From contig JAWABJ010000001.1 in the NCBI GenBank assembly GCA_038884755.1, positions 320,001-384,000 of the forward strand: a stretch of 64,000 nucleotides of DNA. The letters are read 5' to 3'. Below, piece by piece: positions 33,001 to 39,000 of the stretch. The position numbers were made by a program. Every line of letters starts with the position of its first letter. Position 1 is the first letter of the stretch. This DNA comes from Candidatus Norongarragalinales archaeon. Lineage in GTDB: Archaea; Micrarchaeota; Micrarchaeia; Norongarragalinales; Norongarragalinaceae.

Positions 33001-36000
33001 GAAGGCGTGGGCGTCGGCTGGGTGGTGCAATACTTTTGGTATATCTCAGCTTCCCGCGCGCTTGTAACTATAGGCCCTCTCGCGCAAATGCAGTCTATCC
33101 ATTGTTTTATTGAAGCGAACGGCTTTTTACAAACGCAAGCAATAGAATCCACTGCGCCGCTGGCGCACGGGTCTGGAGTGGGCGTGGGCTGGCAGCTTGC
33201 CAAGTCAGCCGCGTTGTTGGCGCACGGGTTTGGAACTACCGTGGGAGCGCAGTCGGCAGCACCGTTGGTGCAAGGGTTGTTGTCGTTTCCGTCGTCACTC
33301 TCCGACTGGCCGTCAAGTTTTTCCGAAAACTTTTCTCCCAATCCGCCTTGCTCTTCCCACAATTCCTTGAAACTGTCGTCAAAACGAGGGTATTGAATTG
33401 GAACCACGAGCCCGGTCGCAGGCTCCAGTCTGGGCGCCATGTCTGCGCCGGTTGAAAACAAGCTTTCCTTATCCGCTGAGGTTTCAGCTGGTATGGAATC
33501 GAAAGACGCGTCAGGCGTCAAAGAATCGACGGCGAATTCCGCTGAAGCGAAAACCACTGTAGCCAAAAGCAATACTCCTGCTATTCCCAACAATACTTCC
33601 TTCACGCTACCACCCTCACAAAAAGCGCCCTAGGGCGCTTTTAGACTTTTGAACCCCACTTGTTTAATAGTAAGCATGCCGAAAGCCGTTATTAAGCCTT
33701 CGCTGTCTTTTTAAACTCCGTACGCCAGCACGCACCTGTCTTTTTCCTTGCAGGTGGAACACTGCGTTTTGGCGGATTGCGAGTGCCTGATGCAGTCGCT
33801 CTTCAAGAACGAAACGAGTTCTCGCAAGATTTCGATTTCCTTCGTCAATTCGTACTCGACTTCGTTGTAGTCCAGCTTGTTTTTCGCCAGAAACCCTTCT
33901 TTTTCCAAGTCTTTCAGCCGTTGGGTCAAGAGTTTGGGCGTGATGGGGTGCAAAGCCCGCTGGAGGACTGAAAATCGGATGGGCTTTTTGAGCGTGAACA
34001 ATTCCAAAAGAAGGGGAAGCATCCACTTTCTGCGCAATAGGTTGATGTGTTTTACCACTGGGCAGAACTGCATGGGGTAGGCCGCTTTGGTTTCCTTGTG
34101 GATTTTTACTGGCATTTTAGATTCCGCCCGCGCGCCGTTTCAGGTGCGCACTAAACTTTTGGTTTTTGCAGGATTAAAACAGTGTTGTCAGGCGTCAGCT
34201 TAAGCCCCGAATGCCGATTTTTTCCGAGCAACCTTCCAGCCGGCTTTTGATTTTCAGGAAAAACTCGCGCGGGTAAGGGGAGATTTTCCGGAATTCTGGG
34301 TCGAGAGTGTCCTTGTTTTCGAACTGCTGGAGGTAATACGCTTTCGCCCCTTTGACGAGCGCGCCTATTTCCATCAAATCTCCTTCATCCAAAAGCGTGG
34401 GGACCACTGTGGTCCTGAACTCGTAATCCACGGACTTTTGCTGCTTGAGGAATTCTATGCTTTCCCGGATTTTTTCCGTGTCAACGTTCGACCGCGTGAT
34501 CTCGCGGTATTTGCGCAGGGGCGCTTTTACGTCCATCGCGACGTAATCCACCGTTTTTTCTTCCACCACTTTCTTTAGCATCGAGGGGTTGAACCCGTTG
34601 GAGTCGAGCTTGACGCAAAAACCTTTTTCCTTGATTTTGCGCGCGAACTCGGGCAAGTCTTTGTTCAAGCACGGTTCCCCCCCTGTTATGACCGCGCCCT
34701 CGAGCAGTCCCACGCGCGAGTCAAGAAACGCGAAAACTTCACTCTCGCTCACTGTTTTGTATTCGCACCTGGATTTTAAGACCAAACCCGGGTTTTGGCA
34801 ATACCCGCAGCGCAGGTTGCAGCCGAAAAGAAAGATTATGGCGCTGGGCTTTCCCGGATAGTCCAAGAGCGTGAGGGGCTGCAGCCCTTTGATGAGCAAG
34901 AAACTCAACCCTTTTTGCAAGGCTGGTATTCAACCCTGTCCTTGAACTCGCTTTGCTTGCCGTCGTTCCACTGCGCCACTGGCCTGTAATACCCTACCAC
35001 GCGAGAGTAGATTTCGCACTTCGTCCTTTGCAATTGTTTTCCTTCGTCCATTTTTTTTTCACCTCACCGCTTTTACGACCATCGCCGGAGTAAAACCTAT
35101 TTCAACGTCGCAAACCGGGCAGTACTCGTGCTCTCCCGAAAGGTATCCGTGCTTGTTGCAGACGCTGAACGTGGGCGTGATGGTGTAGTACGGAAGCCGG
35201 TATTTTTCGGCAATGGTTCTCACGAGTTTTTTCGTCGCTTGCGCGTCAGGCATTCTCTCGCCGAGAAAACCGTGCAGCACCGTTCCCCCCGTGTATTTCG
35301 CCTGCAATTCGTCCTGCAAGTCGAGCGCCAGGAAAATGTCGTCGGTGTAGTTGACCGGCAGGTGCGTTGAGTTAGTGTAATAAGGCGCGGCTTTTTGTTC
35401 CCTCCACGCTTTTTCGTTGGCAACTTTTATGCCCGGGTAATTTTTTTTATCCGACTTTGCGAATCGGTACGTAGTGCCTTCGCCTGGAGTGGCTTCGAGG
35501 TTGTAAATGTGTCCCGTTTCCTCCTGGTATTCGCCTATCCTCGCGCGCAAGTGGTCGAGAGTCTTGAGCGCAAGACTCCTGCCGCTTTCGCTCGCGATGT
35601 TTTCGCCCATAATGTTTTCGAGAGCCTCGTTCATGCCGAGAATGCCGATGGTAGAAAAATGGTTTTCCCAGTAAGCGCCGTAGGCTTGCTTGATGTTGCG
35701 CAAGTAGTGTTTTGAATAGGGGTAAAGGTTTTCTTCGGTGAATTTTTCCAAAACCCTGCGTTTTATTTCCAGGCTTTCTTTCGCCAAGTCCGCCAGCCTG
35801 TCAAGCCGCTCGAAAAACTCAGTCTCGTTTTTTGAAAGAAAGCCGATGCGCGGCAGGTTTATCGTAACGACGCCTATGCTTCCCGTGAGAGGATTTGCGC
35901 CGAACAGCCCGCCGCCTTTCTTGCGCAGCTCCCGGTTGTCCAAGCGCAACCTGCAGCACATGCTCCGCGCGTCTTCCGGCTTCATGTCGCTGTTGACGAA

Positions 36001-39000
36001 GTTCGAGAAGTACGGAAGCCCGTACTTTGCCGTCATTTCGAAAATCTTGTCTGAAACCGGCGAGTCCCAGTCGAAATCGCGGGTAATATTGTACGTGGGA
36101 ATGGGGAAAGTGAAAATCCTGCCTTTCGCGTCCCCTTTCATCATCACTTCCGCGAAGGCGATGTTGAACAAGTCCATTTCGTATTGAAAGTCTGCGTGGG
36201 TTTCCGCCATTTCCCTCCCGCCAATAACAACCTTTTCTTCCGATATATTGTGGGGAACGGTTAAGTCCAGGGTGATGTTGGTGAAAGGGGTTTGAAAACC
36301 CACGCGAGTAGGAACGTTGATGTTGAAAATGAATTCCTGCAAAGCCTGCTTGACTTCTCTGTACCCCAGAGAGTCGTAGCGTATGAACGGCGCGAGGTAA
36401 GTGTCGAAGTTCGAGAACGCCTGCGCCCCGGCGGCTTCGCCTTGCATGGTGTAAAAAAAGTTTACGACCTGCCCAAGCGCCACGCGAAAGTGGCTGGGCG
36501 CCTTGCTTTCTATCTTTCCCGCGACTCCACCGAACCCGTTGTTGATTAAATCGCTTAATTCCCACCCGCAGCAATACACCGACAACAGCCCCAAGTCGTG
36601 CAAGTGGAAGTCGGCGTTCGAGTGAGCCTCGCGAATTTCCGGAGGGTAAACCCTGTTCAACCAATAGCGCGAGATTATGCTTGAGGAAATGTGGTTGTTC
36701 AAACCTTGCAGCGAGTAGCCCATGTTGCTGTTTTCGCGCACTCGCCAGTCGCTTTGGTTCAGGTAATCGTCCACCAGCCTCTCCGCTTCGCCCACTGCAT
36801 TCTTCAAATCGCGGATTCTCGCGTGCTGGTCGCGATACAAAATGTAGGCTTTTGCGGTTTTTGCGTGCCCGCGTTCGATGAGCGTTTTTTCCACGAGGTT
36901 TTGAACGTGTTCTACGGTTGGCGTTTCGCTTTCCTTAGCAAGCAGCTCGACAACAACGTCAGCGATTTTCCTTGCCTCGCGAAAGTCGCTTCCGCCCACT
37001 GCTTTCGCGGCCTTGAAAATTGCGTTGGCTATCTTTTCCTTGTTGAAAGGAACCTGCGTTCCATCGCGCTTGATTATCTTTTCTGGAACAGGCATTTTCA
37101 CCATCCCCCCCCAACTTTTTTCTACGAGAGGTTTTTAGCCATCACGAGCTTCTTGCGGTTTTTGAAAAAGAAAAAGTCTTTCTGCTCGTAGCCGAGCTTT
37201 TTGTAAAGTCCGATCGCGGGAATATTGTCTTCCCTCACGAAAAGCCACGATTGTTTTTGCGTGAAATGCTTTTCGATAAACCCCTCGCCGAAAGAAACGA
37301 GCTTGGTGCCTATCCCCCTGCGCTGGTATTTTTCATCGACGATTATGTTCGCAACTTCGAACTTTGAAACCACGCCTGCCGCGACCAGTTGCTTTACTAC
37401 AGGATCGACTACCGCGGGAAATACCCTGCCGACCAAGCCCAAAGCAAACCGCACGGTTCTCGGTTGCTGGAAGCACATGGAAATGAAGCCGATGGGCTCG
37501 CGCGTTTCCTTCAAGACCATGACGAAAAACCCGGTCGGAAGGCGGGAGTAAACCTTCAAGATTTCGTTGCGCAACGCCGAGGCGTTGGACTTGCAGGTTC
37601 TGGAGCCGAATTCAACGACTTTTTCCAAGTGCCTTTCGGGGTCGAACGGGATTATTTCCCACTCTTCCTCCTGCCCTTGCTTTAAATCAACGCTTTCCAC
37701 GTAGCTCACCTTCTGCCCGTTATGCGCTTTCGCTGCAGGACCGACCTGTTGATCTTTGTTCCTTGAAATTTTAAGCGGGGCGTACATTCGGGGGTTTCAC
37801 CTGTCTAGAATTACAAAATTGGTTTCTGTAAGTTTGTTAAAAAGCGGGGGCTTTCCAAAAGGAAAGCCTTGAAAGTTTCGGCGGGAAATGCATTGTCTTG
37901 CGGTTTTAGGCGCGCTAATAAACCCTCACCAACATTTTTTTTATCAAAGGGAGAGGGAAAACAGTGGGTTTCAGCCTCGATTTTTTCAAAAACGCCGGCC
38001 TGGCGGAAAAAACGCTTTGGACTTTCGTTTTTCTTTCAATTGCAGCGGGGCTGGCGATGACTTCGGCAATAGTATTCAAGCTAGGCAAGCCACACGGCAC
38101 CGACTTCTACTACCACTTGCAGTACGCCGAGAAATACGCTAAGGGCGAAATGGCACTGTTCGACCCTGCGCTGATGGAGAACAACAAAGGCCCTTACCCG
38201 CCTTTGTTCCACTTGCTTCTCGCTTTGCCCGCTTTCTTTGGCCTCGGCGTTCAGTTCGGAGCGTTTCTCGCCGTTTTTCTTTTCCCAGTCGCGTTGGCCG
38301 CAACGGTTTTCGCGGTTTACAAGCTCAAAGGACTTAGGGAAGCGGCTTTGGCGGGCGTGATATTGCTTTCCGGCGTTGCTTTCTTCGACCGGGGAGGGCA
38401 GGTTACTCCCCAAGCGGTCGACATGATTTTCGCGCCTTTGGCTTTCTACGCTTTCTTCAAAAGCAAAGAGCGTTTGTTTGTGCTTTCAAGCGCAGTAATG
38501 GCTTACTCGCACGCTCCCTACAGCTTTCTAGTCTTCGCACCTTTTGCTTTCTACGCTTTCTGGAAGAATTTCAACAAGAGCATGGTGCTCAAGGCTTTCG
38601 TCGCGATGCTGCCGGTTGTTTTGCTGGCGGGCTTTTTCATGCCTTCGTACTTGGGTTCAGCGTCCAGCGTGAACAACGCGCAAGAGCAAAAGATTTTGAG
38701 CGAACCGCTTTGGTTTATCGCTTACTTGTCCCCGCCGTTGTTCCTAGCGTTCGTGTACGCGTTGTACAAAACGCGAGTCAAGAGAAGCGTGGCTGAAGAC
38801 GAATTGCAGCAATTTTCTTTGTTGTGGTTGTTGTGCCTCGCGCCTTTGGCGTTTTTATTTCCCGACAGGCTCGCGTCTTACGCCTCGCAGCCGATTGCGA
38901 TATTCGCTTCGCTTGCGCTTGCGAAAAGTTTTTCGAACGACAAAAAGTTGCTTGCAGTTGCTGCAGTGCTGTTTGCTCTCGCAATAGCGTACAGCATCTA

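Follow-up and report, generated by a model that had tools for sequence, protein, structure and literature searches.

The question raised by this locus is whether a class III ribonucleotide reductase (RNR), which reviews describe as a single chain carrying its radical at the C-terminus, with spare parts given only for formate lyases, can be encoded in two pieces, the radical glycine being placed on a small protein of its own. The window analysed here is a stretch of 64,000 nucleotides from the genome of a Candidatus Norongarragalinales archaeon (contig JAWABJ010000001.1, positions 320,001 to 384,000), and all positions given below count from its first base.

Layout of the locus and the modelled complex

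The features discussed here are collected in Table 1. In profile searches the large gene, referred to below as the core, matches PRK08270 with 1068.3 bits (cut-off 548) and TIGR02487 with 526.5 bits (cut-off 326.35), so that a class III RNR barrel is present, and towards its end lies the C-terminal zinc site, whose residues C649, H652, C662 and C665 we take, from established knowledge of NrdD, to be a metal site. The glycyl-radical loop belonging at the C-terminus of the same chain is absent from the core and is found only when both genes are considered jointly. As the first-pass annotation had stated, the Pfam model PF13597 is divided between them, positions 1-528 falling on the core and 531-562 on a small ORF in a different frame. 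This 48-aa ORF carries the motif SRVVGYY, and the genome has no other NrdD motif of the RVVGY type. The small ORF is matched by PF13597 alone in Pfam, where the Gly_radical domain gave no match, and by NrdD models alone in NCBIfam and PHROGs. The cut spares the zinc site, which reviews assign to the radical domain, so that no more than the glycine loop and last helix is detached. The core has the marks of subclass NrdDh, group h4, an assignment made by motif only; in the available part of PMC4493059 this group is defined by an xCCR motif with Met and a hydrophobic finger-loop tip with Phe.

Table 1. Features of the nrdD-nrdG locus, in window positions
Feature	Position	Strand	Description
nrdD core	35059..37104	-	681 aa counted from the first ATG or 678 aa from 37095; ATP-cone, catalytic barrel and zinc site, then a tail of 16 residues; glycyl-radical motif absent
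ATP-cone	36820..37080	-	core residues 9-95; PF03477, E 1.4e-23
SMCCR motif	35950..35964	-	core residues 381-385; GLFG follows at 399
Zinc site	35110..35160	-	C649-x2-H652 ... C662-x2-C665; complete on core
Shine-Dalgarno site GAGGTGA	35059..35065	-	serves small ORF; last three bases are the core stop codon
Glycyl-radical protein (small ORF)	34905..35051	-	48 aa; SRVVGYYRP, then WNxGK..EF..R helix
nrdG, radical SAM activase	34195..34920	-	TIGR02495 209.6 bits (cut-off 131.15); PF04055

Seven bases, all of them A, separate the core TGA from the ATG of the small ORF, which lies in the +1 frame. Rereading the junction bore out the 7-nt distance first given, and the core length of 678 aa also stands if translation begins at 37095 rather than at the first ATG, 37104. 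The small ORF has a ribosome site of its own, as had been claimed; this is not the GGTG then named but the longer GAGGTGA, all 7 bases of which are complementary to the 3' end of the genome's own 16S rRNA, 7 bases ahead of the ATG. In long ORFs a match of this length or more was seen at 1 of 366 first and 2 of 2807 internal ATGs. With the ribosome site overlapping the core stop, core and small ORF would be translationally coupled. The adjoining gene encodes the cognate activase NrdG, here too in agreement with the first-pass annotation, and probably starts at a TTG at 34908 that overlaps the small-ORF stop as TTGA. Class I nrdA-nrdB are also present in this genome, so that the class III enzyme need not be essential; no convincing NrdR-box was found at nrdD with a pattern that gave 228 genome-wide matches at 3 mismatches.

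Across 78 small homologues R17, G20, P24 and R39 are invariant, and G20 (codon 34994-34992) would be the radical glycine. A model of the complex of core and small protein scored 0.80, the best of 3 controls reaching 0.01, against a mark that 116 of 157 solved complexes reach, as do 2 of 215 mismatched pairs; contact agreement between runs was at least 83% and partner pLDDT at least 71. Such a pass is to be expected from the likeness to solved one-chain NrdD. The modelled contacts include core N127 (NxN flap) and E542, by alignment the equivalents of residues in the one-chain radical-domain contacts described in the available part of PMC11226230.

Taken together, sequence and model make it very probable that this is a two-chain class III RNR, in which the 48-aa peptide completes the core in trans. 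The nrdD gene would be cut into two translationally coupled genes, the first encoding the core with its ATP-cone, entire barrel and zinc site, the second, as a 48-aa protein, the glycine loop together with the last helix. Binding of the two proteins is predicted to be non-covalent: strand 12-15 of the small protein would pair with core strand 646-649 next to the zinc site, the helix of the small protein would pack against core residues 573-590, and the G20 loop would enter the barrel as in one-chain NrdD. If the pair behaves like the rest of its family, NrdG would place the radical on G20, which would generate the thiyl radical, and ribonucleoside triphosphates would be reduced under anoxia. 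As the core has no loop of its own, the peptide would be obligatory and not a repair extra.

Alternative readings of the junction

An assembly error or a decaying pseudogene could produce a similar picture, in a metagenome-assembled genome with a run of A at the junction, a class I RNR as back-up, and a split relative (L027) whose small ORF is broken by a TAG 24 codons in, so that the small gene is not intact everywhere. The first-pass annotation had itself suspected that the poly-A run might hide a slip, a suspicion that can be dropped because the core stop precedes the run: of all single-base deletions, insertions and substitutions tried across 300 positions surrounding the junction, just 6 joined the frames, all of them deletions at 35066-35061 and inside the ribosome site. 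A 629-base contig of run X1 (depth 4.1) spans 35008-35636 and shows neither a difference nor a gap, which is weak support since X1 may be the source sample. RNA run X3 yielded nothing here and X2 only short foreign pieces, an outcome that has no bearing on expression. The nearest relative in the core tree, L002 (support 99), is also split but has another junction, and comparison with it gives 9 synonymous against 2 non-synonymous codon changes over 28 codons. Finished proteobacterial replicons are also split, namely C. necator H16 pHG1 (676 + 66 aa), Sulfuricystis pSTJ2 and a Paracoccus denitrificans replicon. The initial claim that the split is no assembly slip is upheld, and error or decay is largely refuted, with next to no probability left to it. 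Judged by codon positions, the split is kept under protein-coding selection, differences between the small ORF and 19 relatives falling 315/129/68 on positions 3/1/2. No intron, intein or endonuclease lies in the 7-base gap of the junction.

A programmed +1 frameshift or read-through would instead yield a single ordinary NrdD chain, the small-ORF ATG being incidental. Taken by itself this locus does offer evidence against two chains: there is a 6-base window (35066-35061) in which a +1 shift joins the frames while a stop codon occupies the A site, and a single chain of 732 aa would result from such a shift at AGG-TGA or from a one-base error in GTGAGGT. Fused relatives with long linkers show that a joined chain is viable. 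This reading is nevertheless very improbable, given the strong ribosome site at the small-ORF ATG, the viral copies that have no core to join, and the 55 split loci over which no frame, stop or slippery site is conserved. A shift is impossible at 11 of the 40 out-of-frame junctions, where no stretch is open in both frames, and two or more stops stand at 7 of the 15 in-frame ones.

Split, fused and free-standing genes

The two-chain reading was followed through 106 loci with a readable core end, which were read base by base and comprise 55 split and 51 fused cases (one fused locus, L060, being assigned by hand). Split junctions vary as first reported, with relative frames 0/+1/+2 in 15/22/18 loci, the stops TGA/TAA/TAG in 28/21/6, and gaps from -29 to 254 bases. 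The small ORF starts with ATG in 51 of the 55 and has a Shine-Dalgarno match of at least 5 in 38, a count that leans high because the start was chosen partly by that match. Open-frame lengths can mislead: fused forms had initially been deduced from long frames, and two loci listed in frames of 863 and 777 aa prove to be split on direct reading. Split loci occur in seven families of the phylum, more than the four first counted, and beyond it under the record names Patescibacteria, Spirochaetota, Aquificota, Chloroflexota, Thermotogota, Elusimicrobiota and several archaeal groups. Core and loop co-occur in an identical 35 of 201 genomes of the phylum, and in the other 166 neither was seen.

Over the core tree split and fused forms alternate, with 21 changes of which at least 11 are forced by well-supported branches. 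A single clade of split forms was rejected (p-AU 0.0002; FastTree trees, LG+G4, 94 rows and 5000 resamplings, fewer than advised). The closing CxxC is missing from 12 of 54 split cores; in 7 of the 12 a Cys of the small protein stands exactly at the fourth-ligand position of the fused form and in the other 5 the core has a His instead, whereas such a Cys occurs in only 1 of 42 split loci with a full core CxxC. In these 7 of 54 loci, which represent three or four lineages and are not independent, the zinc ligand that the core lacks appears to come from the small protein.

The same small gene is found in many bacteria, archaea and viruses. It stands alone, without core or activase, in 76 of 80 viral loci, and the motif pattern with the radical glycine is matched in 78 of the 80. 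Extra cellular copies exist beyond the core-coupled ones, and a zinc-ribbon form occurs beside complete nrdD genes, 12 of 13 zinc-ribbon-type relatives having a full-length partner NrdD with a glycine loop of its own; a fold model of this form (pLDDT 71) had no PDB match at E 0.001. Around 13 free-standing copies (64 of 81 ORFs scanned) no shared neighbour theme was found, including oxygen stress.

The split may be real but neutral, the two proteins forming a permanent 1:1 complex from translation onwards with neither exchange nor repair benefit. This agrees with the two-chain anatomy, competes only with the idea of an exchangeable part, and has in our judgement not quite an even chance. The alternation over the tree fits easy fission and re-fusion in a flexible linker, this genome has a single copy coupled 1:1 to the core, in one bacterial class most genomes have the fused gene and further matches are listed for only a minority of them, and the neighbourhoods of free-standing copies have no oxygen-stress theme. 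The lone viral copies, on the other hand, are sensible only if a free chain enters the core, and the same argument applies to the extra cellular copies and to zinc-ribbon forms beside complete nrdD.

The presence of the small gene in so many bacteria, archaea and viruses suggests a detachable radical part, of a kind so far known only from another enzyme. Since the chain is cut by oxygen at the radical glycine, damage would be limited to a cheap 48-aa carrier and the 77-kDa core spared. We tentatively propose, without giving it the better part of the probability, that class III RNRs of this subclass have an undescribed family of detachable glycyl-radical subunits of repeated origin, in which oxygen damage is confined, the part is swapped and viral copies aid the host. 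The exchangeability that the first-pass annotation ascribed to the small subunit would belong to this tentative proposal. A spare gene stands beside complete nrdD in L065 and L104, and in L059, of the same clade (support 100), the core has no loop of its own; one route could accordingly lead from such a spare gene to loss of the core loop. Viruses carrying the part alone may keep or boost host dNTP synthesis. The viral and extra copies, as distinct from the window's gene, could conversely act as decoys, inhibiting the host enzyme by binding NrdG or the core, many copies being viral and a small competing chain presumably being able to block as well as complete. This is improbable in view of the retained radical glycine and motif, and of the T4 analogue Y06I, a working cofactor according to a reference title in PMC13450708.

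Significance and comparison with known systems

A glycine-loop split of class III RNR is not described in the searched literature, whose scope leaves out subscription journals, theses and supplements. The split itself is already in RefSeq gene calls, both genes being annotated in C. necator H16 and Sulfuricystis, and the searched papers do not discuss it; the two-subunit class III RNR of the first-pass annotation is the best reading, and its description as the first has to be qualified by these calls. If true, this would be the first glycyl-radical enzyme with an obligatorily separate radical subunit and the first spare part outside formate lyases. A natural radical carrier of 40-70 aa would be a minimal substrate for NrdG, making it testable with a synthetic peptide how the radical domain exits the barrel for activation, and would offer a route to air-repairable glycyl-radical enzymes. 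Annotation would also be corrected, cores now being counted as complete or truncated and the small gene skipped. In C. necator H16 residue 650 of the core (676 aa, 76,191 Da) is the glycine of the zinc-site HGY and not of a radical motif. Siedow et al. reportedly proposed in 1999 that the radical of a 76.2-kDa NrdD sits at G650, a site that would be reassigned to the small gene. An instance of the skipped small gene is C. metallidurans, for which NrdDG is given as Rmet_5137 and Rmet_5139 (PMC2864759).

All domains and their order, the zinc site, xCCR motif, glycine motif and adjoining activase are shared with one-chain NrdD and NrdG (T. maritima 4COI/4U3E, P. copri 8P23, S. thermophilus 9D3X, phage T4 1H78) of subclass NrdDh / PRK08270; the difference is that here a gene of its own encodes the glycine loop and last helix. 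Five class III sequences were found in the PDB, each of them one chain of 605-743 aa, and the 48-aa peptide compared with PDB sequences matched no NrdD chain, only inteins by chance. RNR catalytic chains from two consecutive cooperating genes are also known from NrdJa/NrdJb (class II, Pseudomonas aeruginosa), phage Aeh1 nrdA, and phage nrdD genes split by an intron or intein, as the available parts of PMC4009431, PMC3653736 and PMC9669993 describe. These belong to another class or are cut at another site, and none separates the radical-storage glycine as the window does.

Small chains bearing a radical glycine in trans, with cellular and viral copies as for the small NrdD gene, are represented by GrcA/YfiD of E. 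coli and Y06I of phage T4, spare parts of pyruvate formate-lyase (PFL) activated by the enzyme's own activase (available parts of PMC8683613 and PMC13450708); the accessible part of a 2026 review names formate lyases as the only class of glycyl-radical enzymes with known spare parts. Truncated PFL with YfiD is active once activated, a precedent for catalysis in trans, and YfiD binding by the truncated core was too weak to be measured by ITC, its activation being 32-fold lower (PMC8683613, part available), so that assembly in trans is not automatically efficient. In contrast to GrcA/YfiD, of 127 aa, the window's peptide has 48 aa and no barrel strand, is a PF13597 tail and not a PFL-type glycyl-radical domain, and has an RNR as its partner; and whereas the partner of GrcA/YfiD is full length with its own glycine loop, the window's core ends before that loop.

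The two-gene locus and its junction

The two-gene class III ribonucleotide reductase (RNR) is real, widespread and repeatedly evolved. The first-pass annotation of the window had described a 678-aa NrdD core followed, seven bases on and in another frame, by a separate 48-aa glycyl-radical ORF and then by the activase gene nrdG, and direct reading bears this out: the core ORF lies above the PRK08270 and TIGR02487 profile cut-offs, the third ORF above that of TIGR02495 (NrdG), and PF13597 is divided, positions 1-528 falling on the core and 531-562 on the small ORF. The core ends in a complete zinc site (C649, H652, C662 and C665) and a short tail. 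Neither a second NrdD nor a second NrdD-type glycine motif was found in the window's genome (927 kb, 93% complete). Upstream, 18 bases separate the end of a GNAT acetyltransferase gene from the start of nrdD on the same strand, and the two may share a transcript; directly downstream of nrdG lies an HxlR-type regulator gene, whose product has several cysteines and a weak likeness to the redox sensors RrpA/RrpB.

The same annotation had considered that the poly-A run at the junction (GCG GTG AGG TGA AAAAAAA ATG) could hide a slip, an explanation that fails because the TGA of the core precedes the run, so that changes in the run join nothing. When every single-base change was considered across 300 positions, six deletions, at 35066-35061, were the only ones to join the frames, and these positions are bases of the small ORF's ribosome site. 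That site is indeed present, though its earlier reading as GGTG was too short: the stretch pairing with the 3' end of the genome's own 16S rRNA is GAGGTGA, seven bases ahead of the ATG, and a match of that length or more precedes one of 366 first ATGs and two of 2807 internal ones. A 629-base contig from the public sequencing run X1, which may be the source sample, crosses the junction without a difference. Over 28 conserved codons, differences from 19 split relatives number 315, 129 and 68 at third, first and second codon positions, respectively, as a protein under selection would show.

Coordinates of the features described (plain numbers count along the window)
Feature	Location	Strand	Basis
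nrdD core ORF, 681 aa (678 aa from ATG at 37095)	37104-35059	minus	ORF reading and profiles
Small glycyl-radical ORF, 48 aa, +1 frame, 7 bases after core	35051-34905	minus	ORF reading
nrdG, radical-SAM ORF, 241 aa	34920-34195	minus	Profile match
GNAT acetyltransferase gene	37122-37787	minus	
HxlR-type regulator gene	33711-34115	minus	
Class I RNR operon	G000:C1:705467-710075	plus	
Second NrdG-like radical-SAM gene	G000:C1:437460-436636	minus	
Small ORF broken by TAG	L027:1492-1566		
Partial duplicate of small-gene start	L006:1357-1500		
Zinc-ribbon + glycine-loop small proteins	L065:3654-3932, L094:3644-3934, L104:3348-3638		
Zinc-ribbon + glycine-loop small proteins	L036, L056, L061, L064, L079, L080, L093, L110, L042, each ~3250-3620		
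Small gene alone, viral contigs and ANMV-1	L144-L223, L224:2680-3114		

Spread and history of split and fused forms

Of 201 phylum genomes, 35 contained a match to the peptide, and the core profile matched the same 35. The 30 fetched of 38 peptide matches comprised the window, 20 further split loci, eight fused genes and one locus at a contig edge. The split loci span seven families, so that the conservation noted earlier among relatives holds but its count of four families was too low. A scan of species genomes with the small protein returned at least 595 loci, the best 80 of which (top matches, whose shares are therefore no census) comprised 38 fused genes, 29 loci with a core directly upstream (in one, L104, a complete nrdD is accompanied by an additional small gene) and 13 that lack an upstream core. 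Pooling of the loci with a readable core end gave 55 split and 51 fused (n = 106, with L060 assigned as fused by hand), leaving out 13 that were small-only loci, intein or frameshift pieces and one duplicate. The split is seen in finished replicons as well: on pHG1 of Cupriavidus necator H16 (676 aa + 66 aa + nrdG), on pSTJ2 of Sulfuricystis and on a replicon of Paracoccus denitrificans. At E 0.001 a profile built from 78 small proteins matched 5235 cluster representatives; of the top 150, 149 are shorter than 200 aa, though some may be contig-end fragments; a length-limited search returned 80 small proteins of 39-77 aa.

That junctions vary among relatives was likewise upheld: relative frames of 0 (15), +1 (22) and +2 (18) and core stops of TGA (28), TAA (21) and TAG (6) all occur, with gaps from -29 to 254 bases. 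No stretch is open in both frames at 11 of the 40 out-of-frame junctions, two or more stops stand at seven of the 15 in-frame ones, and the split junctions fit no single recoding rule. The small protein has a median length of 55 aa (range 24-81). One locus, L027, counts against the general picture: a TAG interrupts its small ORF after 24 codons, although the rest of the operon is intact, with error, decay or read-through as candidate explanations. In L006 a partial duplicate of the small-gene start (ENKRTKCEVY) lies in another frame between the core stop and the intact small gene. Inteins are probably present in the NrdD cores whose frames run to 1000-1958 aa (G052:C9, G113:C5, G206:C31, L045, L049, L060 and L063).

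A tree was built from 97 cores after removal of nine short or unmatched rows, with a midpoint root used for display alone. On it the split label must change 21 times, 11 or more of these changes being forced by branches with support of at least 95; shuffled labels give a mean of 32.7. With 94 rows and a simple model, a single clade of split cores is rejected (p-AU 0.0002). Named relatives in the tree are consistent with a placement of the genome in Micrarchaeota. The nearest core to that of the window, L002, belongs to a split locus whose two ORFs overlap by ATGA. Fused forms whose linkers are 30 residues long are interspersed among split ones, which fits either re-fusion or the fission of a long linker, the unrooted tree giving no direction.

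Probable assembly of the two chains

Some split lineages are cut at a second position, within the zinc site. The fourth ligand of fused genes is most often found five residues ahead of the E in EVYSR (29 of 50). The closing CxxC is absent from 12 of 54 split cores; in seven of these (L012, L088, L114, L115, L007, L010 and L011) an apparent fourth Cys ligand stands at -5 in the small protein, and in the other five a His follows one residue later in the core, whereas a Cys at -5 occurs in only one of 42 split loci with the full CxxC in the core. In those seven loci, which represent three or four lineages and are not independent, the zinc site seems to be shared between two chains.

A complex model that paired the peptide with residues 114-681 of the core scored 0.80, against 0.01 for the best of three controls, and so passed a mark that 116 of 157 solved complexes but also two of 215 mismatched pairs attain; at least 83% of contacts agreed between runs and partner pLDDT was at least 71. 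Since the two halves of a split gene often pass on account of their resemblance to structures already solved, this indicates fit, not binding. Peptide residues 12-15 pair with core 646-649 in the model, and further contacts involve N127 and E542, which by alignment match the flap and glutamate described as holding the radical domain in P. copri NrdD (PMC11226230).

The radical site of the C. necator H16 NrdD was reportedly proposed to be G650 in a 1999 paper. Residue 650 of this core (76,191 Da; L131:1968-4341, NC_005241.1) is the zinc-site glycine, and the radical motif RVMGY sits in H16_RS32675, not in the core.

Proposed mechanism, separate copies and known systems

In class III RNR a glycine stores the radical, and NrdG gains access to it when the radical domain swings clear of the barrel (PMC12662201); oxygen cleaves the chain at this glycine (PMC2795772). 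The segment that flips out and is cut is here encoded by a gene of its own, presumably coupled to the core, whose stop codon lies inside the small gene's ribosome site, and to nrdG through a TTGA overlap. The enzyme very probably consists of two chains, with the peptide bound beside the zinc site and the radical set on G20 by NrdG; exchange of the peptide after damage, a spare-part function, is put forward tentatively. The same archaeon has a class I RNR operon with nrdA (a 1032-aa frame with two ATP-cone-like stretches, named from Pfam), genes that we take from sequence likeness to be nrdR-like and nrdB-like, and a palindromic NrdR-box-like site near 705565. The cell therefore probably meets oxygen, which fits the repair idea and is no test of it. 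A second NrdG-like gene, 35% identical to nrdG and with the cluster motif CxxxCxWC, has no adjoining glycyl-radical enzyme.

The small gene also occurs separately. At least 593 viral loci matched, and in the top 80 (flanks of up to 5 kb per side fetched, 63 with at least 2.5 kb upstream) 76 carry it with neither NrdD core nor NrdG in the fetched flanks, with about 58 distinct motif stretches; two are fused and two fall outside the motif pattern. In the archaeal virus ANMV-1 a version of 144 aa likewise stands by itself. A viral subgroup shares an N-terminal extension (NGDLxLDxGxxIPAEKR) with L091, L099 and L105. Four genomes (G201, G203, G205 and G208) hold a split pair plus one to three additional copies, and one extra cellular copy sits among phage-like recombination genes. 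Small proteins of a second type, 85-125 aa long, carry a CHDC...KCxxC ribbon ahead of the loop, and a complete nrdD is present in the same genome in 12 of 13 cellular cases, adjoining in L065, L094 and L104 and elsewhere in nine (four read directly, five from search tables, one of these in two frameshifted pieces); these 12 are candidate spare parts. The thirteenth, L059, has a core without its own loop and groups with L065 and L104 (support 100). In one bacterial class NrdD occurs in 142 of 151 genomes, nearly always fused, with few second matches in a family search that can miss short ones, which was counted against a general role of free-standing copies.

The arrangement in trans is like that of GrcA/YfiD, the autonomous cofactor of pyruvate formate-lyase (PFL), although the window peptide is not a member of that family, having no PFL-type domain match in Pfam, NCBIfam or PHROGs. 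Truncated PFL with YfiD catalyses normally once activated but binds weakly, with 32-fold less activation (PMC8683613), a precedent that both supports and weakens the in-trans reading. According to a 2026 review, spare parts are known for no glycyl-radical class other than formate lyases (PMC13450708), and the split RNRs found in print comprise NrdJa/b of class II, Aeh1 of class I and phage genes split by introns or inteins (PMC4009431, PMC3653736, PMC9669993). The claim of a first two-subunit class III RNR stands in so far as no description of a glycine-loop split was found in the literature searched, which excluded most subscription journals, but RefSeq gene calls already include both genes. 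What is new is a variant of a known enzyme, class III RNR, taken to work as one-chain NrdD does and with a putative, directly testable spare-part function.
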